DNA of 64,000 nucleotides from a phage. Of this stretch, positions 25,992 through 62,841 are shown piece by piece. The notes under the pieces were generated by a model. That model saw only the letters and a list, made by a program, of their open reading frames with translations. It was not told where the DNA came from and did no database searches. Location of the stretch: the sequence record PX915677.1; one strand, given 5' to 3'. The translations under genes were made by a program, and so were the position numbers. How positions within the stretch are numbered: the first letter of the stretch is position 1; every line of letters starts with the position of its first letter.

Positions 25992-25995
<4 letters not shown>
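25102..25995 (-). CDS. P-loop kinase (putative dNMP or polynucleotide kinase)
   Basis: Walker A LNGPPGCGKDT; ATG overlaps upstream stop (ATGA coupling). Confidence 0.4.
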
Positions 25996-27487
<1,492 letters not shown>

Positions 27488-27488
<1 letters not shown>

Positions 27489-28160: not shown

Positions 28161-28183
28161 TTCATCATAGGATAAAAACTCTT

Positions 28184-28528
28184 CTATTCCTTCGATTTTA
28201 AAACCCTCTCAGCTTCTTTCTGTCTCTGGTTAAATAGAGAGACATACTCATCACTAGCGCAGACATTATAAAAAACTGGTTTAGTTTTCTCATAATGCAT
28301 CTCTTTATAAATGGTTTCCGTGTTCTTCTTCCAGTTAGATAAACCGGTAAGAACCCTCTGAGCAACTTCATCAGCTGCTCTATTTCTTTCAATCTCTAAC
28401 TCTTGTTGATGTTTCTCTTTGTCCAGATTACTGCTGTCTGTTTGATATTCGTTAAACTTCATACCACCAAAGAATACAAGAGCTGAGAAAACGATAAACC
28501 CTAAGTTATCACTTAATGTGTTTTGCAT
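28184..28528 (-). CDS. membrane-anchored coiled-coil protein (i-spanin candidate)
   Basis: N-terminal TM LGFIVFSALVFFGG then charged helical domain; start moved to ATG 28528 because the listed start lies inside the upstream terminator. Confidence 0.35.
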   Translation of the reverse strand: MQNTLSDNLGFIVFSALVFFGGMKFNEYQTDSSNLDKEKHQQELEIERNRAADEVAQRVLTGLSNWKKNTETIYKEMHYEKTKPVFYNVCASDEYVSLFNQRQKEAERVLKSKE

Positions 28529-28540
28529 GTTGTCTCCAAC

Positions 28541-28564
28541 GAAAAAAGCCACCCGGAGGTGGCT
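28541..28564 (-). terminator. rho-independent terminator (minus strand)
   Basis: agccacc-loop-ggtggct stem with U-tract on the minus strand (A6 on plus 28541-46). Confidence 0.6.
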
Positions 28565-28585
28565 AAGCTATAACAAGGAGAGTTA

Positions 28586-29332
28586 TTAGAATGGGCTATC
28601 GTTGTCGTCTTCGTAAGTAGAAGCAGGCTCTTTATCAATCGTAGGGATTGAAGGAGTAGCTTCTTTCTGCTCTGTTTCAGAAGCACGAGTAATTTCACGA
28701 CCAGCCAGAGGCATGTTCTTAGCGTCATTAGCTTGAGTAAGCAGGTTGCGCTGGAACGGGAACATCAGTTGATAGGATGCTACGTTCTCATCGGTTTCCG
28801 CATACGGTTCGAAGAATACCAGAGGACTACGAGCTTCACCAACTGCTGCACGATATTTGGTTGGGATTGGAGAAATGGTCTTGATGGAGTTTTTAACTTC
28901 ACCAGCTTTGTTAGTGTAAGAGTTAACCAGAATGTTAACAGGCTGACCTAACAGAACATCCTTGAACCAAGACAGATCACCTTTCAGTGCTTGAATGCTT
29001 GGGTCAATCATCTTGCAAAGATCAAGAATACCAGAGTTCTTAGCTCGTGGGTTTACATCATAGCTCTTGAACTGGCAAGCCGGACGTGGTTCTAATGCCT
29101 TACCATCGGAATCTTTACCAGTAGCATCAACACCAATCAGCTCGAAAGCCAAATCCATACGGAAAGCCGGATTCTTAGGAGTTACTGCTTTGGTCTTCGG
29201 GTCAATCCAAGGGTCACGATTGTGAACACCCAAACCTACTACACGAACGATACGAGCTTCGTATTCACCATCAGGGATTACATCGTAGTTGGATTTACGA
29301 GAAGAAGTTGCGATAGTTGGAATCATAGACAT
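28586..29332 (-). CDS. putative ssDNA-binding protein
   Basis: 248 aa with acidic C-terminal tail ...YEDDNDSPF ending in Phe as in SSB/gp2.5-type proteins; promoter motif upstream and terminator downstream. Confidence 0.45.
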   Translation of the reverse strand: MSMIPTIATSSRKSNYDVIPDGEYEARIVRVVGLGVHNRDPWIDPKTKAVTPKNPAFRMDLAFELIGVDATGKDSDGKALEPRPACQFKSYDVNPRAKNSGILDLCKMIDPSIQALKGDLSWFKDVLLGQPVNILVNSYTNKAGEVKNSIKTISPIPTKYRAAVGEARSPLVFFEPYAETDENVASYQLMFPFQRNLLTQANDAKNMPLAGREITRASETEQKEATPSIPTIDKEPASTYEDDNDSPF

Positions 29333-29391
29333 ATTTTAATTTCCTTATTTAATTTGAAAGATTGTTGCTCTCTTTGAGCGGTTATGTATAG

Positions 29392-29400
29392 TATACATTA
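29392..29400 (-). promoter_or_regulatory. candidate phage-specific promoter element TAATGTATA (minus strand)
   Basis: 59 nt upstream of SSB-like gene start 29332. Confidence 0.4.
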
Positions 29401-29463
29401 CGCTTATACCGATAAGAGTACTATATAATATAAGTATCTTTGGTAGTAGATATAACACACTAA

Positions 29464-29472
29464 TAATGTATA
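29464..29472 (+). promoter_or_regulatory. candidate promoter element TAATGTATA (plus strand, orphan)
   Basis: Same 9-mer on the opposite strand inside the 415-bp ORF-free region 29333-29748. Confidence 0.25.
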
Positions 29473-29748
29473 TATTGTATAGCTGATAAAGTTATTGCAG
29501 GCTTGTATATTGGGCAATTCACAGAATCCCTTGCAAGTACCGAAGGGCAGGAGCCACCTGCGAGATAAAAATAGAGAATTAAGGAATCCTTGATTTAGGT
29601 TGTAGGGACTCCTAGGGACTTTGATTCTCTATTTAAAAGAATATTAATTACTTATTACCTAAATAATTAACTAACTTACTTAAACCAAATTCAAGAATAA
29701 TAGATAAAAAGATTATTCCTAAGAAAGCTAAAAAGTAAAGGATATAAG

Positions 29749-29913
29749 TTACCATTCAAGTAAACCTTTAAAGTTAGATTGTTCTACTATCCTCTGATAA
29801 CGAAGATTAGAGTCAGCTTGTTTCTTTAACATCTCATTATATTTATCTCTGATAGAGTCTTTATATACTACAGGTTCTTTAAATAACGAGATCTTGTTCT
29901 TTTCTTCTTTCAT
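29749..29913 (-). CDS. hypothetical small protein
   Basis: Internal ATG of listed ORF 29749..29997, chosen to limit overlap with the phosphoesterase gene. Confidence 0.2.
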   Translation of the reverse strand: MKEEKNKISLFKEPVVYKDSIRDKYNEMLKKQADSNLRYQRIVEQSNFKGLLEW

Positions 29914-30382
29914 CGAAAACCTTCCTAATCTCTTGCAGAGAAACAGCTTTATAATTAATTTGCTCCATTGATGTACAGAAATATCTCCAATCATCAATTA
30001 CATGATTATGGGTATGAGCATAAATATTAAACCTTCCTCTCATTTCATCAGCGTGGATAGGAATATGAGTTACCCAAAACTCTTTATATTTATAATCACC
30101 AGAGATTCTACGGAAGACTTTCATCATATCAGGGAGAAGTTCTAACCTGTCATGGTTTCCTAAGACTAGATGCTTCTCTCCTTTTACTTCAGCGATGATA
30201 TCAAGGGCATACTTTTCAAACACCCAATCACCGGTAAAGAAGATTTTATCTCGCTTAGTTACATGATCAAATGCAGCTAGGATTGCTTTGTCATGTTCTT
30301 CGATGGTTTTAAATTGCTTACGAAAACTACAGATGTTGCGATGACCTAAGTGACCATCTCCTGCAAAATAAACTTCAGCCAT
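29879..30382 (-). CDS. calcineurin-like metallophosphoesterase
   Basis: GDGHLGH, GDWVF, GNHD and HTHNH motifs. Confidence 0.6.
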   Translation of the reverse strand: MAEVYFAGDGHLGHRNICSFRKQFKTIEEHDKAILAAFDHVTKRDKIFFTGDWVFEKYALDIIAEVKGEKHLVLGNHDRLELLPDMMKVFRRISGDYKYKEFWVTHIPIHADEMRGRFNIYAHTHNHVIDDWRYFCTSMEQINYKAVSLQEIRKVFDERRKEQDLVI

Positions 30383-30391
30383 AAAGACCTC

Positions 30392-30607
30392 TTAGATAGT
30401 GCACCCATCGCAAGTTAAATCACCTAGAAGGGATAGAGAAAGTAATCTGGATTGCTCATCACTATATAATTGATCAATCTCTTCTTTAAGTTTTGCCAAC
30501 TCTATGAAATTGATAAGTTGACCATGTTCAAGACAGTCTGTTTTTAGTATAAATAAAACTTCAGCGTCTGTTGAATCTTCACTTGAATATTTATCAATGT
30601 ATTCCAT
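30392..30607 (-). CDS. hypothetical small acidic protein
   Basis: 71 aa, about 22 percent Asp/Glu. Confidence 0.35.
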   Translation of the reverse strand: MEYIDKYSSEDSTDAEVLFILKTDCLEHGQLINFIELAKLKEEIDQLYSDEQSRLLSLSLLGDLTCDGCTI

Positions 30608-30609
30608 TT

Positions 30610-30831
30610 TTATGCCACATCTCCTTGTTTGTTGTTAATAACATCCAGTGCTGTATAAGCTTTACCTGTTCCTAAGTATTCCAAAACTGGAGGACTCTTC
30701 TTTTCTTCAGCGACTACATAAGGTGTGATCTTCCCTTTCAGTACAGCCTGAGATGCTTTAGCACTGTCTTCAGAGGTATGAATAGTGGTAAGCTCTTTCT
30801 TTCCAATCTTATAAGTGTGAATCCAAATCAT
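30610..30831 (-). CDS. hypothetical protein
   Basis: 73-aa ORF in tightly packed operon. Confidence 0.35.
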   Translation of the reverse strand: MIWIHTYKIGKKELTTIHTSEDSAKASQAVLKGKITPYVVAEEKKSPPVLEYLGTGKAYTALDVINNKQGDVA

Positions 30832-30995
30832 ACTTCTTCCTTATATTCCCAATTTCTTTCATAATACCCAGAGTTGTAGTTTAGGGCGCACTTCTCGGCC
30901 TCTTCTATATCATCAGTGTTTAGAATATTCACCCATCCTCCGGCTTCATCAAAACCTTCTTCTTCCTCATTAATCCATACACTATATTTCTTCAT
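30828..30995 (-). CDS. hypothetical small acidic protein
   Basis: Start at MKKYSVW (ATGA overlap with upstream stop). Confidence 0.3.
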   Translation of the reverse strand: MKKYSVWINEEEEGFDEAGGWVNILNTDDIEEAEKCALNYNSGYYERNWEYKEEV

Positions 30996-31168
30996 CGAGA
31001 AGTTCTTCCCCAATCTTTTACATAGCATCGACCGTTAACCCACTTTGTCTCTGACTTAAATTCCTGAGACAATCTCACCTCACAGTCTTCTCTACTGGCA
31101 TCTCCTCCGATATCAATCAGATACAGGAATAGAGCTATACCTAAAGCCCAAAGAATTATCTTCTTCAT
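30992..31168 (-). CDS. small membrane protein (58 aa)
   Basis: MKKIILWALGIALFLYLIDIGG... N-terminal TM; ATGA coupling to upstream gene; not in ORF track. Confidence 0.35.
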   Translation of the reverse strand: MKKIILWALGIALFLYLIDIGGDASREDCEVRLSQEFKSETKWVNGRCYVKDWGRTSR

Positions 31169-46760: not shown

Positions 46761-47963
46761 TTAGTAGTTTACAACAGTGCCATCGTTCAGGGTAAGGCTA
46801 TTAATCTGCAACACACGACCAAGCTGACGATCACTAATTGGTGCGTTCCATCCAGAGCGGTAGAAGTTACGACCACAGAAGAACAAGATCACATTACTTG
46901 CTACAGTCGAACCGTTTTCAGGATGCTTGATGTTAGCGATATAATAACCACGACGCAGATTACGACGGGTTACTGGGTTGATCTCTAACCCTTGCTCTTC
47001 AACTTGCATTGTTTCAGGAACAGGTTCCGAAGATTCTTCAGCAACTGGCTCGGAGCTTTCCCCTGATAGTGCGTAATCCTCATCACCTGCTGGTGAAAAT
47101 GTTTCTTCTACTTCTTCCACAGGAAGTTCGTATGCAACACGATAGTCAGGCTCAACACCAGAGAAGCTCTTAACAAACTCAACGATGTTGTGAGTGTAAG
47201 TTTCCAGAGTTGTTCCAGTCAGTCCCGGAGCTGTGTTAACTTCCAGAACCCAAGCGTTAGTATTTTTACTAATCAGGTCAACAGCACCAAAGTTCAAACC
47301 CAGAGCAGATACAGCTTTGTGAGCTTGAATCAGAACTTGATCAGGAGGCGCGTCAGTGAAGGCGTTAGAATAAACCCAACCAGTATGATGGTTACGAATA
47401 TCTTCACGATAGGTTGACAGATCGCGGTAACCGTTACGACGAATCTTCTTCTGAACGTAAGTGATAACACCTTCGAACACATGAACACGCCATTCACGAC
47501 GTGGGCCTTGGATGCCTTTGGTGTACAGAGGAGCATCCGCAACACCTTCTCGCGCAAGACGAACAGTAATACCTTCTCCAGAGTGACCAGTTAAGGTTCC
47601 ACGTTCATAAACAATTTCATTCCGGTTCCAGTTCTGAGCTACTTCACGATCGACGGTGTATTCAACAGTTTTGACTTCAGCTAAACGCAGTGCGTTAAAT
47701 GCTGCAACTTTGTTAGCCGCTCGGTTCAAGGCAACCACAGAGTTCAACACAGTTGCGCCACCGAAGAAAGCATCATTGTATCGACGGTTTCCGTAGTTGA
47801 CAACAATATCACCAACACGAGAACGGTAACGAGAACCCTCTGATACCAGAGACATTACGTTAGCATTTAAGCGAAGTTCCTGAATCTTAGTGTTAATTGC
47901 AGAAGTAAGTTCACGAACTGAATCAGAAGGGCCATAAGGAAGAACACGGATACGAGTAGTCAT
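46761..47963 (-). CDS. ATP-grasp family ligase
   Basis: C-terminal AVDLISKNTNAWVLEVNTAPGL typical of ATP-grasp (RimK-like) enzymes; acidic Glu/Ser-rich C-terminal tail. Confidence 0.6.
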   Translation of the reverse strand: MTTRIRVLPYGPSDSVRELTSAINTKIQELRLNANVMSLVSEGSRYRSRVGDIVVNYGNRRYNDAFFGGATVLNSVVALNRAANKVAAFNALRLAEVKTVEYTVDREVAQNWNRNEIVYERGTLTGHSGEGITVRLAREGVADAPLYTKGIQGPRREWRVHVFEGVITYVQKKIRRNGYRDLSTYREDIRNHHTGWVYSNAFTDAPPDQVLIQAHKAVSALGLNFGAVDLISKNTNAWVLEVNTAPGLTGTTLETYTHNIVEFVKSFSGVEPDYRVAYELPVEEVEETFSPAGDEDYALSGESSEPVAEESSEPVPETMQVEEQGLEINPVTRRNLRRGYYIANIKHPENGSTVASNVILFFCGRNFYRSGWNAPISDRQLGRVLQINSLTLNDGTVVNY

Positions 47964-47965
47964 TG

Positions 47966-48190
47966 TTAGATACCTTTAAGTTTAAGAATTTCGTTACGAG
48001 TTTTTTGAATCTGAGCTTCAATTTCGAAGTAGTCATTGAACGCATCGTTCTCTACTTCATCGGATGGTGCATCAATCAGACCGAAAGCGAACGGATACAG
48101 CTTTCGCTGCTCCGTTACTAATTCGATATGAACTCCTATGTAATACTGTAGGAGAGTAATCTTCGGTTTCTTAGGAACCAGATTTGACAT
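47966..48190 (-). CDS. hypothetical protein
   Basis: 74-aa ORF. Confidence 0.3.
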   Translation of the reverse strand: MSNLVPKKPKITLLQYYIGVHIELVTEQRKLYPFAFGLIDAPSDEVENDAFNDYFEIEAQIQKTRNEILKLKGI

Positions 48191-48404
48191 GAGGTTCTAC
48201 CTTAATGCCTTTGATTTTTACATAATCAGCAAGCACGTTGTTGATCACTGTTGGGAAAGGAACCTCAACCTGTGTTTCAAGTACTTGACCAATACCAGCT
48301 TGCATCCACTTTTGGATTGCACGAAGGTTATCACATCCTGTGCTCGTCATCGGGATACGTCGAGTAGTTACAACGTTATCCAGCATCATCTTACGAATTT
48401 CCAT
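48171..48404 (-). CDS. hypothetical protein
   Basis: 77-aa ORF. Confidence 0.3.
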   Translation of the reverse strand: MEIRKMMLDNVVTTRRIPMTSTGCDNLRAIQKWMQAGIGQVLETQVEVPFPTVINNVLADYVKIKGIKVEPHVKSGS

Positions 48405-48406
48405 AC

Positions 48407-50437
48407 TTAACCTCTATTCAATGAACATTTAGGAGAATTACAATAAACTTGATTCATAGAACCAAGCGTACAACTTTCAGCATCGCGCCACGGAATCTGC
48501 TTAAAACACTCTGAGCAGTATCCGAGGGTTGACCACATGGCTTTGGTGAAGTCAGTGCTTCGGTTTCCGTCGAAGCTGACAACAGTTTTTCGGAGAGCTG
48601 TTCGTGATTCAGGAAACACACCTGCTTTCTCAGCAGGTTCCTCCTTTTTTGGCTTAGTTGAGATTGCAAAAATACTGTTGCTACGTTTCTCAACATAAGC
48701 ATCAACAACATCCTCCAGAGTGATGCCTGTCTGTTTCGCTGATGAAGGTAATATAGTCATACGACCAATCATTTCTTCAGTTACACGTAAAGCAAACTCG
48801 GGACGACGGGCGTTTGTTGTATCTGTTGCTTTAATCCATACATAACCATCTTTGATCGTAGCATTAGATACTTTCTTCTTTACTTCTACAGCGCAGACTT
48901 TACAGATATCTTCACCACGAAGACGACTAAGTTCATCATCGAACTCATTCTCTGTTTTAACTTCACCACAGATTTCACAAACACCAATAGGAGTTTCCTC
49001 CTCTTCTTCCTCTTTAGGTTTAGTCAAACCTTCCAGACATTCAGGATGCCAATAGCACTGATATGCGAAGACTGCTTTAGGTGCATCCTTCCAATCAATG
49101 TGTTTGTCACAACCACCACAATCACCATGAGAGTGTGCTTCCCAGAATTTACGAGTGATAGTAACGCCGTTCTTGTTGACGAAACTATCATTCATATCAA
49201 AAGGGATATCATCATCGAAGTCAGCAGTAGTTGACTCAGGCTCCTTTTTCTCCAGAGATGGGTCAACAAAACGACCTGCTGTGATCACTAAGCGAACCAT
49301 AGCATTAACTTCGGAGATGCAGGATACTGTCCCACGGTAAACAATTTTAGGGTCTTTCAGGGCATCCTGATAAGCCTTAATGTCTACGTTATGAACATCA
49401 CCTTCGATGTACTCTTGAGACTTCTCATCGTAGATATAACCAATCATCTTACCACGAGAAGGAACAGCACCAGCAGTTGCATAAGGAACAAACTCATGTG
49501 GTGTGATTTCCACAGTCATATCGCGGCGAATATCAATGTTTCGATCGCTTGCGATTTTGTTTTGACTTACCACTGCGTTTCTTCGACGAACGTCTGCCGC
49601 TGTCACTCCTGGCTTCGTGTCGTAAGGATTGCTTGTACTGCTTTTTGAGGAACTTTGATAGTTGCTTTGGCTGTAGTTGTTCGAGTAGTAACTGGCCCAA
49701 CGATTGACTACCGTAAAAACCGGAAGCTCGTGGGCGACCTCTTCAACCAGAGTCATACTGTTGTTTGACATATCAAAGATATATTCTGTACCAACTTTAC
49801 ATTCAAAATGCTCGTCAATACGATTCTTATGAGACTTAGAACGCTTCAGAATCCACATCAACATATCTTCTTCAGAAGCACCAAACCAATCTCTGTTACA
49901 ACGTGCGAGGTGGAATGGACGCTCTTCGTTACGGATGATATGAAGACGGTTATCAGAAGCATCATGCCAGATTAAAGTGAAAGCACCATCCAGCTTTTGA
50001 ATAGTCTCTGCTGCACCAATAGTGTTAATAGAGTGGCAGATGTTCTCACTGTCTACCTCGAAGTTTTTGCTGTCAGGTAACAGATCTTGGTCCATCAAGG
50101 TTCCGTTATGAACCAGAGTGATGTTACCATGTTGGAAAGGATGGGCGTTCTTGGCGTTAACTGCACCTTTCGTTGCATGACGGCTGTGACCAACAATCCA
50201 TGAAGGTGCTACAGTGTAAGCTGTTTCACCAGTGGTGTGCTTCTTGTACTCATCTTGTAGGATGAATGCGAAAGAAGGAAGAGCTTCTTTATAAGTGAAG
50301 ACTTCCTTAGTGCTTTTACGCTGACCAAAGATACCGGAGGAATGTTGTCCTCGGAATACTCCAGCATAAAAGAGTTGGTTAAATACGTCTAAATCAGTGC
50401 TTGACAGATTACCGCCAGCTAATACGATGCCACAAAT
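48407..50437 (-). CDS. class-II (Ntn) glutamine amidotransferase domain protein with Cys-rich C-terminal region; apparent ATT start
   Basis: Frame open from stop 50441-43; N-terminus ?CGIVLAGG, HSRHATKG and LVHNGTL motifs; no ATG/GTG/TTG before codon 114; SD aggtgg 8 nt upstream of ATT-TGT; multiple CxxC pairs C-terminally. Confidence 0.6.
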   Translation of the reverse strand: MCGIVLAGGNLSSTDLDVFNQLFYAGVFRGQHSSGIFGQRKSTKEVFTYKEALPSFAFILQDEYKKHTTGETAYTVAPSWIVGHSRHATKGAVNAKNAHPFQHGNITLVHNGTLMDQDLLPDSKNFEVDSENICHSINTIGAAETIQKLDGAFTLIWHDASDNRLHIIRNEERPFHLARCNRDWFGASEEDMLMWILKRSKSHKNRIDEHFECKVGTEYIFDMSNNSMTLVEEVAHELPVFTVVNRWASYYSNNYSQSNYQSSSKSSTSNPYDTKPGVTAADVRRRNAVVSQNKIASDRNIDIRRDMTVEITPHEFVPYATAGAVPSRGKMIGYIYDEKSQEYIEGDVHNVDIKAYQDALKDPKIVYRGTVSCISEVNAMVRLVITAGRFVDPSLEKKEPESTTADFDDDIPFDMNDSFVNKNGVTITRKFWEAHSHGDCGGCDKHIDWKDAPKAVFAYQCYWHPECLEGLTKPKEEEEEETPIGVCEICGEVKTENEFDDELSRLRGEDICKVCAVEVKKKVSNATIKDGYVWIKATDTTNARRPEFALRVTEEMIGRMTILPSSAKQTGITLEDVVDAYVEKRSNSIFAISTKPKKEEPAEKAGVFPESRTALRKTVVSFDGNRSTDFTKAMWSTLGYCSECFKQIPWRDAESCTLGSMNQVYCNSPKCSLNRG

Positions 50438-55772: not shown

Positions 55773-55797
55773 AAAAAAGGACTCTCCGAAAAGAGTC
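55773..55797 (-). terminator. terminator-like hairpin (minus strand)
   Basis: gactct/agagtc stem followed by U6 on minus strand. Confidence 0.3.
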
Positions 55798-55952
55798 AAG
55801 CTTTAAATACAAAAAGATATTACCCAATATCTGTGGATAACCTGCTCTTAAAATATCTATCCGACGGATGTTCGAGGAATGTTCCTCTCCCTAGCATCGG
55901 CCCCATACGGGAAATATATTAAGATTAGGTTAGTTGAGTCAGAATAACTCAC

Positions 55953-55974
55953 ATAGCCCTCCGAAGAAGGCTAT
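55953..55974 (-). other. conserved stable hairpin element (copy 1)
   Basis: Minus-strand RNA AUAGCCUUC-UUCG-GAGGGCUAU just after a stop codon; shares the 13-mer CTCACATAGCCCT (plus) with 61132-61144. Confidence 0.4.
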
Positions 55975-55988
55975 AGGCGTTACTACAA

Positions 55989-56204
55989 CTAAAAGTCACT
56001 TGATTCTACAAAAGCATCACTAAGGATTTCGTCAATTTCTTTGTTAGTCAAATCTTTCCTGAACCAACAACAAGGTACATCCACCCATTGACCAGAGTTG
56101 TTTTCTACAGAGCATCTATTGCCTGTCTTACTCTTGCACTTATAGGTTTTACCTTTGTCTAGACGATAATGTATTCTGTGAACGATCGACACAAGCGTTA
56201 TCAT
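55989..56204 (-). CDS. hypothetical protein
   Basis: 71-aa ORF. Confidence 0.35.
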   Translation of the reverse strand: MITLVSIVHRIHYRLDKGKTYKCKSKTGNRCSVENNSGQWVDVPCCWFRKDLTNKEIDEILSDAFVESSDF

Positions 56205-56437
56205 TACTCGCCTTTCTTAGCACGATCTTTGGCAGTTTTGCCAGTGCGGATGCGATGAGAAACGTTAACCAGAGTGCCACCATCAACTACGGTAACGCTC
56301 TTGTTTTTAGCCAGATCGAACACAGTTTTCTCTGTGCCACCCAAGCGAATTTGCTTAGGCTCACTGAAGGTTTGGGTTGATTTGGATTGGAACTGGAACG
56401 GTTGACGGATTGCATCGATTGCGCTTACTTTAGACAT
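56204..56437 (-). CDS. hypothetical protein
   Basis: 77-aa ORF. Confidence 0.35.
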   Translation of the reverse strand: MSKVSAIDAIRQPFQFQSKSTQTFSEPKQIRLGGTEKTVFDLAKNKSVTVVDGGTLVNVSHRIRTGKTAKDRAKKGE

Positions 56438-56669
56438 AGGGGAAATTCCTTAAAAAGTCATGGCTGCGTAGAGGGAATTCCCTACGCAAATTGGGCCGCC
56501 CACAGAGAGGCGTCATAGTACTAAAAGGAGGAGAGAAGAGGGCTTATTTAGCTACCTTTTTCTGTCCGTTTACGAACCAGATAATCGAACCATCAGGCTG
56601 TCGTTGACCGAAGCCTTTCTGGTTAATCATATCGTCATAAGAATATGCTTTACGTCTCATTTGTTTTAC

Positions 56670-56918
56670 CTACGAAGTTAAGATGATTTCAGCCTTAACA
56701 TATTTCTCACCAACAACCATATCACCAGAGATGACACGTAGTTCTCCAGTGCCTAGGTTAACAGCTCCAGCAGGTTGGCAACCTCTGCTCTTAGCTGTCA
56801 GCATATAAATCTTTTGAAGATGGCACTCTTGGAGAGTGAACACATCTGACATGTTTAGATCTTTAACACGGAGGACTGTTTCCTCTTTGCTCTTAACTTT
56901 AATATGTATTGTGCTCAT
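56670..56918 (-). CDS. small protein, expanded paralog family
   Basis: Family pattern L..L..G.vF...Y.....NL..G. Confidence 0.4.
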   Translation of the reverse strand: MSTIHIKVKSKEETVLRVKDLNMSDVFTLQECHLQKIYMLTAKSRGCQPAGAVNLGTGELRVISGDMVVGEKYVKAEIILTS

Positions 56919-56920
56919 GC

Positions 56921-57166
56921 CTACTCCTGAACCACTGACATACGAATCATTTCTACCTGATCATCAAGACCTTTAACAGATAGCACACCTGTGGAAAGGT
57001 TTACCACAGGAACCCAACCACTGGCTATACGGATGTTACCAGAAGCATTTTCAACCCTCATATAATATTGAGGAGAAGCACTTCCGTTCTGAACTACGAA
57101 TGGGTTTCCGGGAATGATTGTTTCCAATCGAACCGTATTATCCTTTTTCTTTGGGATGATTTTCAT
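56921..57166 (-). CDS. small protein, expanded paralog family
   Basis: MKIIPKKKDNTVRLETIIPGNPFVV... Confidence 0.4.
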   Translation of the reverse strand: MKIIPKKKDNTVRLETIIPGNPFVVQNGSASPQYYMRVENASGNIRIASGWVPVVNLSTGVLSVKGLDDQVEMIRMSVVQE

Positions 57167-57414
57167 TATGTATTATCCACCAAAAGTTCTGCCGATACAG
57201 GGACAACTCGGCACCAGATAGAAGGGGCTGTTACGTTACCATCAGATAGACGAAGAGTGATTGCTCGATCGGAGTTAACGGTTACATTAGGACTTTCAGA
57301 CACAGACCCTTTGACATAGAGAGTAGAACTCTCAGGGAATTTAAATACTGCTCCACTAGGAAGAGAGTTGATATCAACCGTGGACACTTCTTCTTTCTTG
57401 TGAGTAATCTTCAT
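57166..57414 (-). CDS. small protein, expanded paralog family
   Basis: MKITHKKEEVSTVDINSLPSGAVFKF... Confidence 0.4.
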   Translation of the reverse strand: MKITHKKEEVSTVDINSLPSGAVFKFPESSTLYVKGSVSESPNVTVNSDRAITLRLSDGNVTAPSIWCRVVPVSAELLVDNT

Positions 57415-57422
57415 ATTGATTC

Positions 57423-57734
57423 CTATTTAAGTTTGAGGCTAATATTAAGGTGCATACATGCCCTGTTCTGTACAGCAGCATAACTTCTACCAAGCATGTC
57501 AGCCATTCTCTGAATAGACATAAACCCGGCATTACGGATAAGGAACTGATCTTCTTCTTTAGACCACTTGACTCGGATTGAAGCTCTTGATATTCCGAAT
57601 TTAGTGCAAGCTGTGTTAACAGCATTCTCCGTTACATTCATAATCTGAGCAACTTCTTGAACCGAGTACTCTTTGATCAGTCTCCGAAGATTTTCAATCT
57701 GCATCGGAGTCCATATAGTTCTTCGTGCTTTCAT
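57423..57734 (-). CDS. HTH DNA-binding protein (putative transcription regulator)
   Basis: Two helix-turn-helix-like repeats (QIENLRRLIKEYSVQEVAQIMNVTENAV / EEDQFLIRNAGFMSIQRMADMLGRSYAAV). Confidence 0.4.
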   Translation of the reverse strand: MKARRTIWTPMQIENLRRLIKEYSVQEVAQIMNVTENAVNTACTKFGISRASIRVKWSKEEDQFLIRNAGFMSIQRMADMLGRSYAAVQNRACMHLNISLKLK

Positions 57735-58024
57735 ACATCCTCCAATTAAACGTTTATATAAGACTTGCTTAGATAAAGATTCAATAAAATAGGGGGAGGG
57801 GACGAATCCTCCCTTATCCTATTAGTTAATATTGCATGTAAGATCTAACAATCGGTTGCCTTTGTAGGAATAAGCGTTATGCTAATCCAGCACTAAACTC
57901 CCGCCCCCTTAGTGGGCTGGGTTATTAAAGGGTAACGCCCTTATGGGCTAGTTACATGAATGTTAGTTTGATAGGAGATCTGAAGTCCTATCTCAAAGGA
58001 CTCTCGTAAGAATCCTTCACGATA

Positions 58025-58282
58025 TTACTTAAAGATAAAATGAATAACTGCATCATATGCTTTAAACAGAAGCCAACCTATTGGATAAAAAACTCCTGAC
58101 AGTATTGAGATAGGCCACAACACAATTAAGAGAACAACCATCATCTCATCAGGTTCAGAGCTGGTAGACCCTGTTGTAATGACCCCTTTTAGTAGACCTT
58201 TCTTGTATAGCAGTTTCATCACTAAGACAGAAAGGAATACTCCAATAAAGTAAACTGAGATAAAAATATCAAGTAAACCCAT
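58025..58282 (-). CDS. small multi-TM membrane protein
   Basis: 85 aa with hydrophobic segments FISVYFIGVFLSVLV and VVLLIVLWPISILSGVF. Confidence 0.4.
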   Translation of the reverse strand: MGLLDIFISVYFIGVFLSVLVMKLLYKKGLLKGVITTGSTSSEPDEMMVVLLIVLWPISILSGVFYPIGWLLFKAYDAVIHFIFK

Positions 58283-58434
58283 TTAATCGTCTCTTACTTG
58301 TTCAACTTTCGTCGGCTATCTCTCCAAGCCAACCAAGTGTAGGTTTTCAGTTCTTCAAAGTCTTCTGGAGAGAATAGATAATCTTTGAAGGTGTTCCCAA
58401 ACCACTCTAAAAATTCTTCAGTCATAAGATTCTC

Positions 58435-58608
58435 TTAACAAGATTGGTCACACGGCTGATCACCACATGTTTTACAGATCACTGGTGAGTAACTACAGGC
58501 AGGATAAACAGACACCCCATCAAACGTCTCACATCCACAATCAGGACATGTACCGTTGGATTCCATGTCATCATCGTCATCTACTTCACCGCCACCAAAA
58601 CAACTCAT
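58435..58608 (-). CDS. small Cys-rich protein (57 aa)
   Basis: MSCFGGGEVDDDDDMESNGTCPDCGCETFDG...CKTCGDQPCDQSC; SD aaggag; not in ORF track. Confidence 0.35.
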   Translation of the reverse strand: MSCFGGGEVDDDDDMESNGTCPDCGCETFDGVSVYPACSYSPVICKTCGDQPCDQSC

Positions 58609-58617
58609 ACAGGCTCC

Positions 58618-58839
58618 TTAGTAAACTAAACCTGTAGCCTTTGCATCAGGCTGAGGGACTACTTTTGCACTAGGGCGATAGCCATCCACTGAGCCGTTCC
58701 AAAGATTGACACAGGTGATATATCCATCGTCTATGATGTCTGTTTTAATCCAGAAGTGTTTATCATGACCAAAAATACTTCCGTTTGGCAGCGTGGACAA
58801 TTCAACAGTTTTAAGTGACTGCTTAGAGTCTAGTTTCAT
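58618..58839 (-). CDS. small protein, expanded paralog family
   Basis: LKTVELSTLPNGSIFGHDKHFWIKTD...CVNLWNGSV. Confidence 0.4.
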   Translation of the reverse strand: MKLDSKQSLKTVELSTLPNGSIFGHDKHFWIKTDIIDDGYITCVNLWNGSVDGYRPSAKVVPQPDAKATGLVY

Positions 58840-58848
58840 ATAAGTTCC

Positions 58849-59046
58849 TTAATATACCAAACCATGTAAAAGAAACATCCTCTTTGTAAGCTCTGCTTTA
58901 GCTCTGTAATAAGCCTTAGAACCTAACAGGCGGCTCTTAACAAAGAACTTAATGTCATTGCTAACATCTTGTATTAAACGCTCCTGTACAGTTTCTGAGG
59001 AGTTATTAATCGAATCAATTAACACCTTTGTAGATGTGTAATTCAT
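58849..59046 (-). CDS. hypothetical small protein
   Basis: Start at MNYTSTK, 1 nt after lipoprotein stop. Confidence 0.3.
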   Translation of the reverse strand: MNYTSTKVLIDSINNSSETVQERLIQDVSNDIKFFVKSRLLGSKAYYRAKAELTKRMFLLHGLVY

Positions 59047-59047
59047 A

Positions 59048-59347
59048 TCACCACTCCTTACCGGTTGTAATCGTAGAGCCACCACACCACAATGCTGTAT
59101 CAATAACAACATTATCCGGTGTAGACTTCTCTTCGTTGATAGAAGGGTTAGCATTAGAACAGGTTGCTCCGTTCCATCGCATATCAATTTCACCAGAAGG
59201 AATCTTCTCACCCTTATGCCAGCGAGAAACACAAACACCTTCCACTGCTACTGCACACCATCCATCAGGACGGCTCTGTACGCAGCCTGTAAGGGCTATG
59301 CAGACAAGGAAGATACAGATTAAGGATATTACACCACCCCAACTCAT
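59048..59347 (-). CDS. lipoprotein (Cys-rich)
   Basis: Signal peptide ISLICIFLVCIALTGC with lipobox LTGC. Confidence 0.5.
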   Translation of the reverse strand: MSWGGVISLICIFLVCIALTGCVQSRPDGWCAVAVEGVCVSRWHKGEKIPSGEIDMRWNGATCSNANPSINEEKSTPDNVVIDTALWCGGSTITTGKEW

Positions 59348-59366
59348 AATTACCTCCTATTAGATT

Positions 59367-59400
59367 TGGTGGACTATCTGGAATCGAACCAGAAGCTCAC
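59367..59400 (-). other. tRNA-like 3' fragment (T-arm plus acceptor-CCA), degenerate
   Basis: Minus-strand ...TCTGG-TTCGATT-CCAGA-TAGTCC-ACCA; no pairing 5' acceptor strand found by eye. Confidence 0.3.
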
Positions 59401-59487
59401 TAAGAAAGTAATTCCCACTGTTATAAAAGCACTTGCCTCAACAGGGATACACTAACTCTGGTGCCGCACCCATACTAGCCCTAAATG

Positions 59488-59563
59488 TGGTGCGCCCTAC
59501 AGGACTCGAACCTGTAACCAATAGCTTAGAAGGCTACTGCTCTATCCATTGAGCTAAGAGCGC
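59488..59563 (-). tRNA. tRNA-Arg (anticodon TCT)
   Basis: Hand-folded cloverleaf: acceptor GCGCTCT/AGGGCGC, D-arm GCTC-AATGGAT-AGAGC, anticodon loop CTTCTAA, T-arm ACAGG-TTCGAGT-CCTGT, encoded CCA. Confidence 0.8.
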
Positions 59564-59571
59564 AGAATTAT

Positions 59572-59736
59572 TTAGATCATATCTCGCTTGGTGATATGAC
59601 CACATGTTTTACATCGAAGTATATAACGAGTACCTGTGTCTTCTATTTGACCAATCTCATTATATATGTGTAAACGAATTTCTTTTATTGTCTCCCAATC
59701 ATGGAGATGGAAGAAACGTTTAAACCACTTGAACAT
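59572..59736 (-). CDS. hypothetical small CxxC protein
   Basis: Internal start MFKWFKRFFHLHDWE...; ends ..RCKTCGHITKRDMI. Confidence 0.25.
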   Translation of the reverse strand: MFKWFKRFFHLHDWETIKEIRLHIYNEIGQIEDTGTRYILRCKTCGHITKRDMI

Positions 59737-59743
59737 AATAACC

Positions 59744-59995
59744 TCAAGCACAAGCAGGGAGAGTGATGATTTTATGCTTACCGTCAAACTCTCCAAACAA
59801 ACCCAAGAATGTAGGACTGTAAGTTCCAGTGCAAACAAACTCATCAAACAATGCGTTATAGCTAGGCTTAATCTTCCAAGCCCATACATAACCCATCTTA
59901 TCGATTGCAATGTAACGAGTGTTCAGAGGAACAGTCATCATCACATCGTCAACTTCGATCACTTTAGTTATTGGTGCAGCTTGAAAGTTTTTCAT
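59744..59995 (-). CDS. hypothetical protein
   Basis: 83-aa ORF. Confidence 0.35.
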   Translation of the reverse strand: MKNFQAAPITKVIEVDDVMMTVPLNTRYIAIDKMGYVWAWKIKPSYNALFDEFVCTGTYSPTFLGLFGEFDGKHKIITLPACA

Positions 59996-60225
59996 TACAT
60001 TTCCTCTAATTTAAGAGTTGCTTTATACTCTGTAACTGGAACGTGCCCAGCGAATGAAAGCTTATGGGCAGGATGTGATAAATTTACAGAAAAACCTCCC
60101 CCAATCTTCATGTAGAACTTCTTTTTGTCCCAAGATGGGCACTCATCAAGTGAGAAGATTGATCCAACGCTCAAACCTCGGAAAGTCTTTTGGTCTGTTT
60201 TAGTTGAGCCTAGAATGATATTCAT
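59995..60225 (-). CDS. small protein, expanded paralog family
   Basis: FRGLSVGSIFSLDE...FSVNLSH; ATGA coupling with upstream small ORF. Confidence 0.4.
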   Translation of the reverse strand: MNIILGSTKTDQKTFRGLSVGSIFSLDECPSWDKKKFYMKIGGGFSVNLSHPAHKLSFAGHVPVTEYKATLKLEEM

Positions 60226-60398
60226 ACTTTACCTTTAATGAAAATGTCATTACCACAGACACAGCATGAACGAACAACAGTAGCGCCACGCTGAACGATA
60301 CGAACCTCTTCCTTAACCAGATTGACACGAGCGCCGCAGCAAGGAGAGTTGACATAAGAGTAACCAGCTTGAGTATTCTTGATTGTTTGATTAGACAT
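60222..60398 (-). CDS. small Cys-rich zinc-ribbon protein (58 aa)
   Basis: MSNQTIKNTQAGYSYVNSPCCGARVNLV...RSCCVCGNDIF; SD gaggaag; not in ORF track. Confidence 0.35.
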   Translation of the reverse strand: MSNQTIKNTQAGYSYVNSPCCGARVNLVKEEVRIVQRGATVVRSCCVCGNDIFIKGKV

Positions 60399-60442
60399 TT
60401 TAGCTTCCTCTTGTTAGTTTAAGTAAGAGTTGTCCCTTAATT

Positions 60443-60471
60443 AAAACAACAAAGGCCGCCTTCGGGCAGCC
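60443..60471 (-). terminator. rho-independent terminator (minus strand)
   Basis: ggcugcc-cgaa-ggcggcc stem (G-U pair valid on minus strand only) followed by UUUGUUGUUUU. Confidence 0.6.
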
Positions 60472-60476
60472 TCTCT

Positions 60477-60728
60477 TTATTGACTCACACCACGAATCAG
60501 ATGATTCTGTAGCGTCCCGTCTTCTGCATTATACAGGAATGCAAACATCAATTCTTTAGCCACATCTCTTGAACAATTAAGACACTTAGAGATTTGCGTT
60601 AGTTGCATGTTGCGTTCTGTGTGTTCCATCAAGGCAATGCGAATGATTTCTCGCATACCTATTACATGAACTGTTTTAACCGGCATAGGTCCAATTGCCT
60701 TGCTTGTTACGAATGGCTGACATTGCAT
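60477..60728 (-). CDS. hypothetical protein
   Basis: 83-aa ORF; start ambiguous (alternative ATG at 60686); overlapping 45-aa ORF 60676..60816 also possible. Confidence 0.3.
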   Translation of the reverse strand: MQCQPFVTSKAIGPMPVKTVHVIGMREIIRIALMEHTERNMQLTQISKCLNCSRDVAKELMFAFLYNAEDGTLQNHLIRGVSQ

Positions 60729-61136
60729 GAATCCAGAAGCCTTCCAGTTTCAGAGCACCATTAGCTACTGCATCCATACGTTCAGGGCGGTTCATACGTT
60801 TGGTTGATACTTTCATACCTATCTCTCTTTGTTAGTGGAGGCATTATTGCCAGTTGATATAAGGGATAGCCCTAGTCAGTAGACTAATCCTGACCGCGTA
60901 CTCATTGCCGACCTTCTCTGCCTAAGAGTTCAGGTTCTAGAGCTATCTCTTATCCCAACTGGTGAAGACTCCCTACCCCTAGGAAGTCTCCTGAATCCCA
61001 AACCAATACGTACCCCTACATATCAGAAAGTCTTTCGAAAATTAACAGGTTTTAGTCTAACACCGGATGTTCGAGCAAGCTCTCCCTAGCGGTGTGGCAT
61101 ATGCCTGAATTAATAAGTTAATGAGGAACACCCTCA

Positions 61137-61164
61137 CATAGCCCTCTGATAAACACAAGGGCTA
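61137..61164 (-). other. conserved stable hairpin element (copy 2)
   Basis: atagccct/agggctat 8-bp perfect stem with 12-nt loop just after stop of 61175..61393; preceded by the shared 13-mer. Confidence 0.4.
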
Positions 61165-61174
61165 TAAGTCGGTG

Positions 61175-61393
61175 TTACTTTTGGGATAAACACAGATCAG
61201 GTCGTGGCATAACAGTGGTTGATAGACCGAAGACTTCAACAGAACCACTGCTCAAGTTAGCAGCCTTACACAAACCATCAGGGGTTTTATCTTCTAGCAT
61301 CAGCCAGAAACGTTTATCATAAGAGAAAACATCACCACCTTTAACGTCCTCTGCATTTGCATATTTAGGATAATCAACTACTTTAATTTCCAT
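61175..61393 (-). CDS. small protein, expanded paralog family
   Basis: KGGDVFSYDKRFWLMLED...ANLSSGSV. Confidence 0.4.
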   Translation of the reverse strand: MEIKVVDYPKYANAEDVKGGDVFSYDKRFWLMLEDKTPDGLCKAANLSSGSVEVFGLSTTVMPRPDLCLSQK

Positions 61394-62642: not shown

Positions 62643-62841
62643 ATCATTTACCCTTTATCAGAGATTAAAAGTAATATTATTTAAGTAAGTTATATTTAGT
62701 AAACTTATTTTCTAAGAAATTTTCAAAGGGTCTATATACAGAGCATTACCCATAGTCCCAGAATACTGCCATCTTTTTCAATAAATTTACTAAGTGGTTG
62801 GTTTATAAAGGAATTTAGTTTGTCAAATCTGGCACTAGTGA

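Follow-up and report, generated by a model that had tools for sequence, protein, structure and literature searches.

Genomic context of the two hairpins

The window, i.e. the whole 64-kb stretch of DNA analyzed, belongs to a phiEco32-like Kuravirus (a coliphage) in which the early-operon genes of this region lie on the minus strand, and this strand is the sense strand for both hairpins. Copy 1 is housed in IGR1, the spacer separating the homologues of phi32_91 and phi32_90, and copy 2 in IGR2. The 71-aa open reading frame (ORF) upstream of copy 1 has its first stop codon (TAG) at 55991-55989, followed by in-frame TAG and TAA, and the hairpin (HP1) begins 13 nt past this first stop. Upstream of copy 2, a 72-aa ORF ends with TAA at 61177-61175 and HP1 begins 8 nt beyond. 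Both hairpins are hence located just 3′ of the stop codons of small genes and at the head of untranslated stretches, as an earlier note on this DNA had described; these stretches measure 239 nt 3′ of copy 1 and 354 nt 3′ of copy 2. GTAAC is present 5′ of HP1 in all lineages and in both IGR types, where it often provides the stop codon of the upstream gene.

The early polycistronic RNA of this phiEco32-like phage, which carries both modules, is sigma-70-driven. The sole known promoters of the ~26-kb early unit are located far upstream, at the far right end (SU10 Table S2, PMC4281155), and for phage 7-11 just two early promoters were validated (PMC8948821). Intrinsic terminators on the sense strand were found 3′ of both copies (60474-60451, 57813-57794, and 55797-55780). 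The terminator of IGR1 is kept with compensatory changes in phage 7-11, whose record lists it under this name, and it marks the border of the conserved phi32_83-88 block in kuraviruses and 7-11 alike. There is no promoter room for the genes past it, and therefore this terminator must be leaky or overridden, a point against the regulatory RNA proposed below. The far-upstream promoters fit an IGR1 RNA that is cut from, or terminated off, the operon transcript.

Architecture of the RNA module

The 13-mer CTCACATAGCCCT, from which the two sites had been recognized, is present exactly two times in the window (plus strand, 55948-55960 and 61133-61145), and the proposed hairpin fold of the minus strand is borne out by predicted energies at both sites (Table 1). 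The repeat alone is not significant, because about 30 exact 13-mer repeats should arise by chance in 64 kb (N^2/2 × 4^-13; our own arithmetic) and CTCACATAGCCCT with up to two mismatches is not enriched (4 matches vs 1.4 expected; a count of 4 was reached in 7 of 100 shuffles). Significance comes from a second motif, CTAGGGAGAG-N4/8-CTCGAACATCCG, located ~50 nt 3′ of both copies and nowhere else, from the covariance-model scores (E ~1e-21 to 1e-22 at both window sites), and from conservation of the module in other phage families. The search for further copies that had been recommended was carried out with covariance models over the 64-kb window and returned the two sites and no third match.

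According to the fitted models, both hairpins open a structured non-coding RNA domain of ~120 nt, which is duplicated and comprises HP1, HP1b, HP2, and HP3. The "conserved hairpin element" of the earlier note is therefore real with respect to the hairpins but not self-contained, each being helix 1 of a multi-helix module. GUGAG does follow both hairpins, but as the 5′ strand of a second hairpin, HP1b, in which it pairs with CUCA. The UUCG tetraloop is found in copy 1 but is unconserved, with HP1 loops spanning 4-12 nt. In the IGR1 copy, a long-range helix (P1) encloses HP2 and HP3, and HP3 contains an invariant 7x7 internal loop (CUAGGGR / RAACAUC). The conserved domain that follows the hairpins had been overlooked, as had the terminator and the antisense complementarity to the host gene nrdD described below.

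Table 1. Positions of the module features within the 64-kb window.
Feature	Position	Strand	Remarks
Module 5′ edge, IGR1: triple in-frame stops (TAG, TAG, TAA) and conserved (A)GUAAC	55976..55991	-	
HP1, copy 1: C(UUCG)G loop, 10 bp including U.G pairs	55952..55975	-	-14.3 kcal/mol, z = -3.3
HP1b, copy 1: UGAGUUA / UGACUCA, holds GUGAG motif	55935..55951	-	100% of cells paired; one pair changed on both sides
P1 5′ strands, IGR1: UAACCU, UCUUAA, AUAUU	55912..55932	-	covariation
HP2, copy 1: mini-hairpin CCC-GUAU-GGG	55901..55911	-	covarying pairs
HP3, copy 1: 6-bp outer helix, loop CUAGGGA / GAACAUC, inner hairpin GAGGA-ACAU-UCCUC	55861..55900	-	
nrdD-antisense stretch of 32 nt, IGR1	55823..55854	-	includes P1 3′ strands 55851-55846 and 55843-55838
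Perfect DnaA-box 9-mer inside the antisense stretch	55840-55832	-	
Small variable hairpin AGAUAUU-GGGU-AAUAUCU	55815..55832	-	missing or different in 7-11 group
Intrinsic terminator, IGR1: 7-bp stem, UUCG loop, CU6	55773..55797	-	~20 nt 5′ of next start codon
5′ edge of copy 2, IGR2: TAA of the 72-aa ORF inside conserved AGUAAC	61167..61177	-	
HP1, copy 2: 12-nt loop, 8-10 bp	61137..61166	-	-14.0 kcal/mol, z = -2.1
HP1b, copy 2: GUGAGG / CCUCAU	61121..61137	-	
HP2, copy 2: GGC-AUAU-GCC	61096..61105	-	
HP3, copy 2: outer helix ACACCG / CGGUGU, identical invariant loop, GAG-CUUG-CUC	61060..61095	-	
Remaining untranslated RNA of IGR2: more hairpins, loops with UAGGG	60825..61059	-	

Within IGR2, a 67-nt segment (60939-60873) is 80% identical to the gene 24 (N) leader of P22-like phages, in which the counterpart sits downstream of nutL. 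Complementarity of IGR2 to the host was not detected in the E. coli genomes searched; the presence of the same domain in this spacer counts against the nrdD model presented below.

Conservation and covariation

In the model-fitted alignment of 32 distinct sequences, 98.3% of the cells were paired compared to at most 45.5% with slid partners, and both-sided changes occurred in 15 of 22 pairs. A separate MAFFT alignment of 12 IGR1 sequences, which included P1, also yielded 98.3% paired cells (at most 47.5% when slid). P1a is invariant, both-sided changes were found in three of the six pairs of P1b, four of the six pairs of the HP3 outer helix covary, and HP2 covaries between CCC/GGG, GCC/GGC, and GGC/GCC. 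The loop-edge positions of HP3 change jointly (A..G <-> C..A). The HP1 stem is invariant across kuraviruses and the 7-11 group; in the metagenomic phage contig L046, in which covariance models detected one divergent module copy, seven of the eight HP1 pairs differ on both sides with pairing retained.

Covariance models found exactly two copies per kuravirus (all of phiEco32 was covered) and a single copy in Salmonella phage 7-11 (25-90 kb covered). Between kuraviruses and the 7-11 family, IGR1 retains ~70% identity despite different flanking genes, which suggests at the sequence level that this spacer is under selection. The conservation in relatives on which the earlier proposal depended is thus present, the module being kept in other phage families. 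The proposed action at the RNA level of the minus-strand transcript also agrees with the data: the pairs are maintained by compensatory changes, and since U.G pairs turn into C.A mismatches when the opposite strand is read, the fold is specific to the sense strand.

Comparison with known RNA and DNA classes

An Rfam 15 scan of the window gave tRNA-Arg as the sole match, and permissive Rfam scans of both IGRs gave chance-level matches only (E = 4-9) and no riboswitch or leader. A tRNA or tRNA-like module was rejected, since ARAGORN and the Rfam tRNA model found only the tRNA-Arg at 59488-59563. HP1 is not an intrinsic terminator, because there is no U-tract behind either copy (GUGAGUUAUUC or GUGAGGGUGUU comes next), and it is missing from the terminator scan. 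RNase III requires ~20 bp, about two helical turns of dsRNA; HP1 with only 8-10 bp was therefore rejected as an RNase III site of the T7 R1.1 type. In the predicted fold, P1 together with stacked helices approaches the length of an RNase III substrate and might qualify as one. A small coding gene was also rejected: the ORFs of 31 aa (GTG 55952) and 33 aa (TTG 61158) read CUAGGGAGAG in different frames, and in the phage 7-11 copy the ORF crossing the module has early stops. IGR1 has one perfect DnaA box and no local AT-rich dip, and a DnaA-dependent origin or box cluster was rejected.

Models R1 and R2 gave no match in HK022 24000-31000, the expected put region (put sites are unannotated in this record), nor in the nutL region of ST104; the put family is absent from Rfam. 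With a CGCUCUUUA-like boxA as criterion for lambdoid nut sites, no sense-strand GCTCTTWA was found in either IGR. Two features of 3′-UTR-type sRNAs were found in IGR1, namely a terminator conserved across families (stem 55797-55780 followed by CU6) and a possible seed with complementarity to nrdD near the ribosome-binding site, which is conserved on the phage side across lineages and also on the host side.

Antisense match to host nrdD

A stretch of IGR1 is antisense to the 5′ leader of E. coli nrdD from -45 to -9, with 29 of 31 positions matching. The gene nrdD encodes the host anaerobic ribonucleotide reductase. The site was found in 5326 of 5426 E. coli genomes, one time each, in the treC-nrdD spacer and antisense to nrdD. 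For the IGR1-nrdD duplex, -48.3 kcal/mol was calculated compared to -18.8 ± 2.9 kcal/mol for shuffles (z = -10). In the reverse search with the nrdD leader, only kuraviruses matched among 50,697 phage records. The core CUGUGGAUAACCUGUUCUUA is common to the nrdD leaders of E. coli and Salmonella; 7-11-like phages retain ~19 nt of complementarity to this core (19 contiguous matches in L029), and in E. coli phages the complementarity runs on into the E. coli-specific flank of the leader. The predicted fold masks most of the antisense stretch inside P1, which counts against the nrdD model presented below. Judging by the -10 and by the boxes for FNR and NrdR (PMC2892513), the target is expected to lie within the 5′ UTR of nrdD. 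Two DnaA boxes are present in each of the E. coli and Salmonella nrdD leaders.

Possible function and alternative explanations

Through its antisense stretch, IGR1 is a candidate phage regulatory RNA, as judged from sequence. Our tentative interpretation, to which we give somewhat less than an even chance, is an operon-embedded regulatory RNA targeting nrdD, in which the shared domain would be a scaffold for protection or processing. The roles as processing sites or transcript stabilisers that the earlier note had suggested for the hairpins would fit this interpretation. Within the early polycistronic transcript, the domain begins where the upstream small gene stops, at its stop codon, and would provide a folded, ribosome-free scaffold at the head of two non-coding RNA segments. 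Ribonucleases would be kept by HP1 and HP1b from the 3′ end of the upstream mRNA as well as from the 5′ side of the non-coding RNA, and the invariant internal loop of HP3 would bind a conserved factor, probably of the host. In IGR1, scaffold, 32-nt nrdD antisense, and intrinsic terminator would together constitute a 3′-UTR-type regulatory RNA. Its target region in nrdD abuts the Shine-Dalgarno sequence; the conserved unpaired UCCACAG may nucleate pairing with the nrdD mRNA, and the duplex could then grow into the P1 3′ strand with displacement of P1, thereby blocking translation of nrdD or triggering cleavage of its mRNA. We infer this function, as well as accumulation of the IGR1 RNA, its processing, its pairing in vivo, and the direction of regulation.

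The domain could also control elongation in cis, either by acting on the RNA polymerase (RNAP) transcribing it, like HK022 put and Bacillus EAR, or as a ligand- or protein-sensing leader, which we consider unlikely. Host RNAP would then pass, or conditionally stop at, the terminators of the 26-kb unit, chiefly that of IGR1 65 nt downstream. The restriction of the known promoters to the far right end, the two validated early promoters of 7-11, and the sense-strand terminators downstream of both copies would agree with such a role, as would the position of the IGR1 terminator, which in kuraviruses and 7-11 borders the phi32_83-88 block and leaves ~20 nt to the following gene. One domain with differing downstream sequences in IGR1 and IGR2 resembles an aptamer with its expression platforms, and the invariance of the internal loop hints at a host partner that is itself conserved, e.g. 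RNAP. However, the models show no resemblance to either the HK022 put region or a P22-type nutL region, and neither an Rfam riboswitch or leader match nor a sense-strand boxA was found. Moreover, the copies stand in series within one operon at distances of 5.5 and 11 kb from its promoters, terminator-like sites that precede IGR2 get passed without the domain, no convincing antiterminator pairing with the terminator was found, and the nrdD antisense match is left unexplained. The last point also applies to the earlier note's idea of plain mRNA punctuation, in which RNase E or RNase III sites and 3′/5′ protective stem-loops would set the segmental stability of the early mRNA and have no role in trans or on the polymerase. 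Stable stems right behind stop codons, where long untranslated spacers begin, AU-rich single-stranded linkers separating the helices, and the near-RNase III length of P1 plus stacked helices are in line with it, and the early RNase III sites of T7 and the CUUCGG hairpins of T4 are precedents. In addition, the IGR2 segment is homologous to the P22 gene-24 leader, whose lambda counterpart, the N leader, is an RNase III target. Punctuation would need neither an invariant 14-nt internal loop across three phage lineages nor the A..G / C..A co-variation, there are just two sites among >50 early genes, and HP1 alone is below RNase III length. We regard this explanation as rather improbable.

A function at the DNA level appears very improbable to us. 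Here, GGTTATCCACA would be a DnaA box whose flanks possibly derive from the regulatory region of nrdD in the host, IGR1 would serve as a protein-binding site on the DNA, namely a DnaA roadblock or an origin-related or recombination site, and the hairpins would be incidental or form in single-stranded DNA. The perfect TTATCCACA is invariant in all IGR1 lineages among variable neighbours, the two such boxes in both nrdD leaders point in the same direction, and this explanation or plain capture of host DNA accounts for the nrdD similarity equally well. Against it stand the single box with neither a cluster nor an AT-rich unwinding element, the near-chance number of two perfect boxes in 64 kb, and the host identity that reaches 10-12 nt past the box in both directions, an extent not required by DnaA. 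Furthermore, compensatory changes and U.G pairs indicate selection on a single-stranded sense-strand fold, and the hairpin domain is present in IGR2 without any box.

Relation to known systems

The early-region RNase III sites of T7 are intergenic stem-loops in early polycistronic phage RNA. The T4 CUUCGG hairpins are discussed in PMC8948821. Like both, the hairpins described here are intergenic stem-loops of early polycistronic RNA, and copy 1 has a C(UUCG)G loop. By comparison, HP1 is half as long as an RNase III substrate, the UUCG loop is unconserved, and the element is far larger and contains an invariant internal loop.

Bacillus EAR is an RNA acting on the RNA polymerase that transcribes it. 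HK022 put suppresses termination in cis by acting on the beta′ zinc-binding domain of RNAP. With EAR and HK022 put (PMC9378689) the module shares two similar folded copies per genome, covarying stems, conserved loops or bulges, transcription in early operons with intrinsic terminators farther 3′, and no known dedicated protein. However, put consists of two long stems (~70 nt) with a triplex, whereas the module has five helices and the 7x7 loop, and its copies are arranged in series in one operon, kilobases from promoters.

With respect to the nrdD-targeting RNA that we favour, DicF is a phage- or prophage-encoded sRNA acting on host mRNAs. The same holds for svsR (PMC12803456), and a lambda sRNA acts on the host replication machinery (bioRxiv 10.1101/2024.10.31.621285). 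Similarly, the predicted partner of IGR1 is a host mRNA for DNA precursor supply or replication. In this case the target would be the anaerobic ribonucleotide reductase. The known sRNAs belong to temperate phages or prophages and are each transcribed from a promoter of their own, whereas IGR1 lies in the early operon of a lytic phage.

CpxQ and SroC are 3′-UTR-derived or operon-embedded base-pairing sRNAs of enterobacteria. Like these, IGR1 is part of a parental transcript without its own promoter, its last element is a Rho-independent terminator that carries a U-tail and follows an AU-rich stretch, and its conserved single-stranded seed shows complementarity to a target leader beside the Shine-Dalgarno sequence. 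Unlike these, it stems from a virulent phage and has a large conserved multi-helix domain in front, most of its seed is masked by an intramolecular helix, genes continue past its terminator, and the complementarity comprises 29-31 nt compared to 7-12 nt in sRNAs of the CpxQ/SroC type.

Setting of the two hairpins

Between 55500 and 61700, the window shares 93–99% identity with phiEco32-like coliphages (Kuravirus, Gordonclarkvirinae), and the genes of its early region are located on the minus strand, with many small ORFs and a tRNA-Arg. The earlier note had pointed to a 13-mer with an inverted repeat behind two small genes, and its description agrees with our data: the 13-mer occurs exactly twice in the window, and both sites form stable minus-strand hairpins (−14.3 and −14.0 kcal/mol; z = −3.3 and −2.1), which are followed by GUGAG and start 13 nt (copy 1) and 8 nt (copy 2) after a stop codon. 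One of them carries a C(UUCG)G loop. Exact 13-mer repeats are expected about 30 times by chance in 64 kb (N^2/2 × 4^−13), and a shuffle test of the 13-mer was not significant. Since the repeat as such is at chance level, the case for a real element must rest on other evidence. The hairpin itself (HP1) was rejected as intrinsic terminator due to the missing U-tract. The two spacers harboring the hairpins, IGR1 and IGR2, are listed in the table together with further features.

Coordinates of the spacers and of further features in the window
Feature	Position	Strand	Extent and location	Content
IGR1	55992-55754	minus	239 nt, phi32_91 homologue to phi32_90 homologue	first hairpin
IGR2	61178-60825	minus	354 nt, phi32_113 homologue to phi32_112 homologue	second hairpin
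Terminator-like hairpin	60451-60474	minus	inside early operon	
Terminator-like hairpin	57794-57813	minus	inside early operon	
Terminator-like hairpin	55780-55797	minus	inside early operon, end of IGR1	followed by CU6
nrdD-antisense segment	55854-55823	minus	IGR1	AUUUUAAGAGCAGGUUAUCCACAGAUAUUGGG
DnaA box	55832-55840	minus	IGR1	TTATCCACA
P22-like segment	60873-60939	minus	67 nt, IGR2 (locus L008 2001-2067)	TCGGCAATGAGTACGCGGTCAGG(A/G)TTAGTC
UAGGG loops	60950-61040	minus	IGR2	AUGUAGGGGUA, CCUAGGGGUAGGGAG, GACUAGGGCUA
Spacer without genes	62643-62841		200 nt	TAATG...TGTATATA

The published promoters of the ~26-kb transcription unit are located far upstream, at 73.5–76.7 kb in SU10, and the next promoter is found at 47.2 kb (PMC4281155). 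Inside the early operon, three hairpins resemble intrinsic terminators on the sense strand; they are far from any known promoter, and early transcription must read through them. Candidate promoters in the linker were rejected: the best hit of a sigma-70 scan, CTGACT-N18-TATATT (9/12), is not kept in Salmonella phage 7-11, and the phage gp36 promoter motif tAATGTAtA has only an imperfect match (TAATATATT), published promoter positions being elsewhere. Conserved promoter-like hexamers were not found in the linker. The 200-nt spacer without genes has a G+C content down to 25–30% and contains TTGACA-like hexamers as well as a stretch with loose likeness to the phage-sigma motif.

Architecture of the module

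A second common motif, CTAGGGAGAG-N4/8-CTCGAACATCCG, is located ~50 nt downstream of each hairpin and occurs only at these two places. RNAalifold was applied to the two window copies and those of SU7, ECBP2, Salmonella phage 7-11 and pSal-SNUABM-01. The resulting fold comprises HP1, a 3-bp mini-hairpin with an RUAU loop (HP2), and a third hairpin (HP3) with an outer helix of 6–7 bp, a symmetric 7×7 internal loop (5′-CUAGGG(A/C) opposite (G/A)AACAUC-3′) and a short inner hairpin. In single-sequence folds, GUGAG pairs with a conserved CUCA as the 5′ arm of an additional hairpin, HP1b. For IGR1, these folds also contain P1, a long-range helix (UAACCU/AGGUUA, UCUUAA/UUAAGA and more) that encloses HP2 and HP3. 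Hence, the hairpins are not stand-alone elements; each is part of a larger multi-helix module. Its 5′ edge is a conserved (A)GUAAC, often the source of the upstream stop codon and in IGR1 the site of three in-frame stops, as would suit an RNA from which ribosomes must be kept away. Small ORFs spanning the module were rejected as coding because the conserved bases are read in different frames.

Support for the fold and its strand

With a covariance model built on the module, 35 copies were detected in the sequences gathered; in their alignment, which is fitted to the model, 98.3% of the cells are paired compared to 31–46% with slid partners, and 15 of the 22 pairs have changes on both sides. 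An independent MAFFT alignment of 12 IGR1 sequences, including HP1b and P1, also gave 98.3% paired, versus 34–48% when slid. Within P1, part P1b has three covarying pairs and P1a is invariant. The U·G pairs in HP1 and HP3 would be C·A mismatches on the opposite strand, and thus the fold belongs to the sense strand.

At the flanks of the HP3 inner helix (window 55888 and 55873; columns 111 and 126 of alignment A6), A..G and C..A switch jointly. The switch occurs among near-identical kuraviruses, and A..A and C..G were never seen, which points to a constrained, specific non-canonical contact or pair.

Distribution of the module

Searches with two covariance models (R1 and R2) detected exactly two copies each in the window and in phiEco32; the phiEco32 genome was completely covered by the window plus loci L001, L005, L016 and L052. 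In Salmonella phage 7-11 (Grimontviridae), scanned over 25–90 kb, there was one copy, which is of the IGR1 type, and no second copy. IGR1 as a whole has ~70% identity between kuraviruses and the 7-11 family despite different neighboring genes. One divergent copy is present on the metagenomic contig JBOFGJ010000684.1; its HP1 stem has a wholly different sequence (GUUAAGCG/CGCUUAAC) that still pairs, and the HP3 loop is unaltered. A large ORF of this contig resembles those of Zobellviridae phages such as CVT22, the nearest isolate, in which no module copy was found. Although binned as a Flavobacterium MAG, the contig looks like a phage of this type. Scans of IMG/VR, of metagenomes and of a set with one genome per species yielded nothing beyond relatives of the same phages, and pattern matches in loci L014, L017, L018 and L020 lie inside coding sequences and were discarded as chance.

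CVT22 (locus L048, 31061-31540), kuraviruses (window 46761-50098) and 7-11 have a common layout with a phage sigma factor and a block of amidoligase, glutamine amidotransferase and ATP-grasp genes, located downstream of the long early operon in all three. In kuraviruses and 7-11, the RNA module is found at the upstream border of the amidoligase/ATP-grasp block.

Complementarity of IGR1 to the host nrdD leader

IGR1 ends with a canonical intrinsic terminator, kept with compensatory changes, ~20 nt before the next start codon; between P1 and this terminator, there is an invariant GGTTATCCACA block. An antiterminator pairing of the P1 3′ strand with the terminator 5′ arm was also considered, giving only 4–6 bp, and is unconvincing. 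When IGR1 was searched against 5,426 complete E. coli genomes, 5,326 had a match, once per genome, in the treC-nrdD spacer. As this match is on the strand opposite nrdD, the phage sense RNA is antisense to the nrdD leader, covering positions −45 to −9 up to the GGAG Shine-Dalgarno sequence. For the duplex, an energy of −48.3 kcal/mol was predicted, compared to −18.8 ± 2.9 obtained with 1000 shuffles (z = −10); without gaps, 29 of 31 positions match. At the sequence level, the antisense match of this one module copy to the host nrdD leader is statistically strong.

The reverse search of the nrdD leader against 50,697 phage records returned only kuraviruses and one mis-filed Salmonella contig, in whose nrdD leader the core CUGUGGAUAACCUGUUCUUA is conserved. 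Two records of the phage collection, AFYI01000007.1 and AGRM01000005.1, are 0.5-Mb contigs of Salmonella chromosomes. The 7-11-like phages have kept ~19 nt of complementarity to the core (19 contiguous matches in locus L029), and in the E. coli phages the complementarity reaches into the E. coli-specific flank. From TATAAT and the FNR and NrdR boxes ~150 nt upstream (PMC2892513), we infer that the target site is within the nrdD 5′-UTR. No anaerobic reductase or other RNR gene was evident among the minus-strand ORFs of at least 400 aa in the window.

The matching part of IGR1 includes a perfect DnaA box that does not vary in any IGR1 lineage. The nrdD leaders of E. coli and Salmonella have two DnaA boxes each, within TGTGGATAA(C/G) (locus L050 ~1512-1522 and ~1590-1600; locus L051). 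This suggests control of nrdD by DnaA, of which no description was found in the papers examined. Also in E. coli, at L050 ~1535-1560 (plus strand, antisense to the nrdD leader), GGAAAGACGUUUUCC and then GGUUUUUUUG form a terminator-like hairpin with U-run directly after the stretch resembling the phage RNA; E. coli might thus have a cis-antisense RNA of its own at this leader.

IGR2 and its counterpart in phage 7-11

For IGR2, no match to E. coli genomes was obtained even at E = 10. A segment of IGR2 has ~80% identity to the leader of P22-like phages (ST104, SE1, ST64T and others) between nutL and gene 24 (N homologue), including a near-identical 30-mer and hairpins with compensatory changes. 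Because the SU7/ECBP2 lineage has no match over this part, the segment behaves as a mosaic insert. UAGGG motifs recur in predicted loops elsewhere in IGR2, echoing CUAGGG of HP3, and the surrounding stems covary between the window and SU7. In 7-11, a stretch of 712 nt without genes adjoins the phi32_112 homologue (82133-82845; locus L021 9134-9846). It has two T-arm-like sequences, GGTTCGAATCC and GGTTCGACTCC, and the CTAACAAAGAGAGA ribosome-site context of kuravirus IGR2; ARAGORN detected no tRNA in it.

Possible functions

We conclude that phiEco32-like and 7-11-like phages possess an RNA module that has not been described before and is supported by covariation. The simplest account is that IGR1 would yield a regulatory RNA, derived from the early transcript of the operon, with the terminator setting its 3′ end. 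Pairing with nrdD mRNA would begin at the unpaired conserved UCCACAG and from there extend as a duplex into the 3′ strand of P1. The HP1–HP3 domain would serve as a folded scaffold on the 5′ side, the same scaffold heading a different, longer RNA in IGR2, and HP1 with HP1b could protect the upstream mRNA end and the 5′ side of the non-coding RNA.

Three observations weigh against this account: P1 masks most of the seed, and IGR2 is without detectable host complementarity. Furthermore, a perfect DnaA box lies within the match and two such boxes lie in each of the host leaders, so that the nrdD likeness may also have its source at the DNA level or in the mere capture of host DNA. A cis-acting antitermination or attenuation element is attractive because RNA polymerase must cross the terminators at 60474, 57813 and 55797 with no promoter nearby, and IGR1 borders the conserved phi32_83-88 block in both phage families. 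However, the module has no likeness to put or nut, its two copies are arranged in series, and upstream of IGR2 there are terminator-like sites that are passed in its absence. Punctuation of the mRNA, as proposed in the earlier note, is possible too, but leaves both the invariant loop and the nrdD match unexplained. The interpretation in the note is thus partly supported: the action of the hairpins is at the RNA level and could well be protective, but they are neither isolated elements nor RNase III sites.

A more far-reaching extension of the regulatory RNA account, which we consider rather unlikely as a whole, is a novel RNA family common to a whole group of virulent podophages that encode a sigma factor, comprising kuraviruses, the Salmonella 7-11 group and a Zobellviridae-like phage from a metagenome. 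Its invariant loop would engage a conserved host machine (RNA polymerase or a ribonuclease), and the ancestral copy would be the self-masking scaffold of an antisense RNA reprogramming the host anaerobic ribonucleotide reductase during infection. Such a lytic-phage sRNA would be tuned to conditions of the oxygen-poor gut and would unite a cis scaffold and a trans seed in a single RNA embedded in an operon.

Relation to known RNAs

NrdD supplies dNTPs without oxygen, the condition of the gut where these phages replicate, and the phiEco32/Kuravirus group is under development for phage therapy. So far, hardly any regulatory RNAs have been charted in virulent phages, and we know of none reported for this group. 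If the regulatory RNA account holds, it would provide a new RNA family clearly supported by covariation, an interaction between phage and host RNAs whose target site is defined and which can be tested directly, and a way into the problem of how promoters at one end drive a 26-kb early operon that has terminators within it.

Rfam searches at gathering and permissive thresholds gave nothing relevant or similar, R1 and R2 had no match in the early-region stretch of HK022 expected to hold put (24000-31000) or in the ST104 nutL region, and sense-strand boxA was absent from IGR1 and IGR2. By eye, HP2 and HP3 did not fit a K-turn, a sarcin-ricin loop, a tRNA-like shape or a type I-F CRISPR repeat. 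Annotators now label the module as empty spacer or spurious 'hypothetical proteins'; even if no more than the structure is right, a well-defined orphan RNA motif remains.
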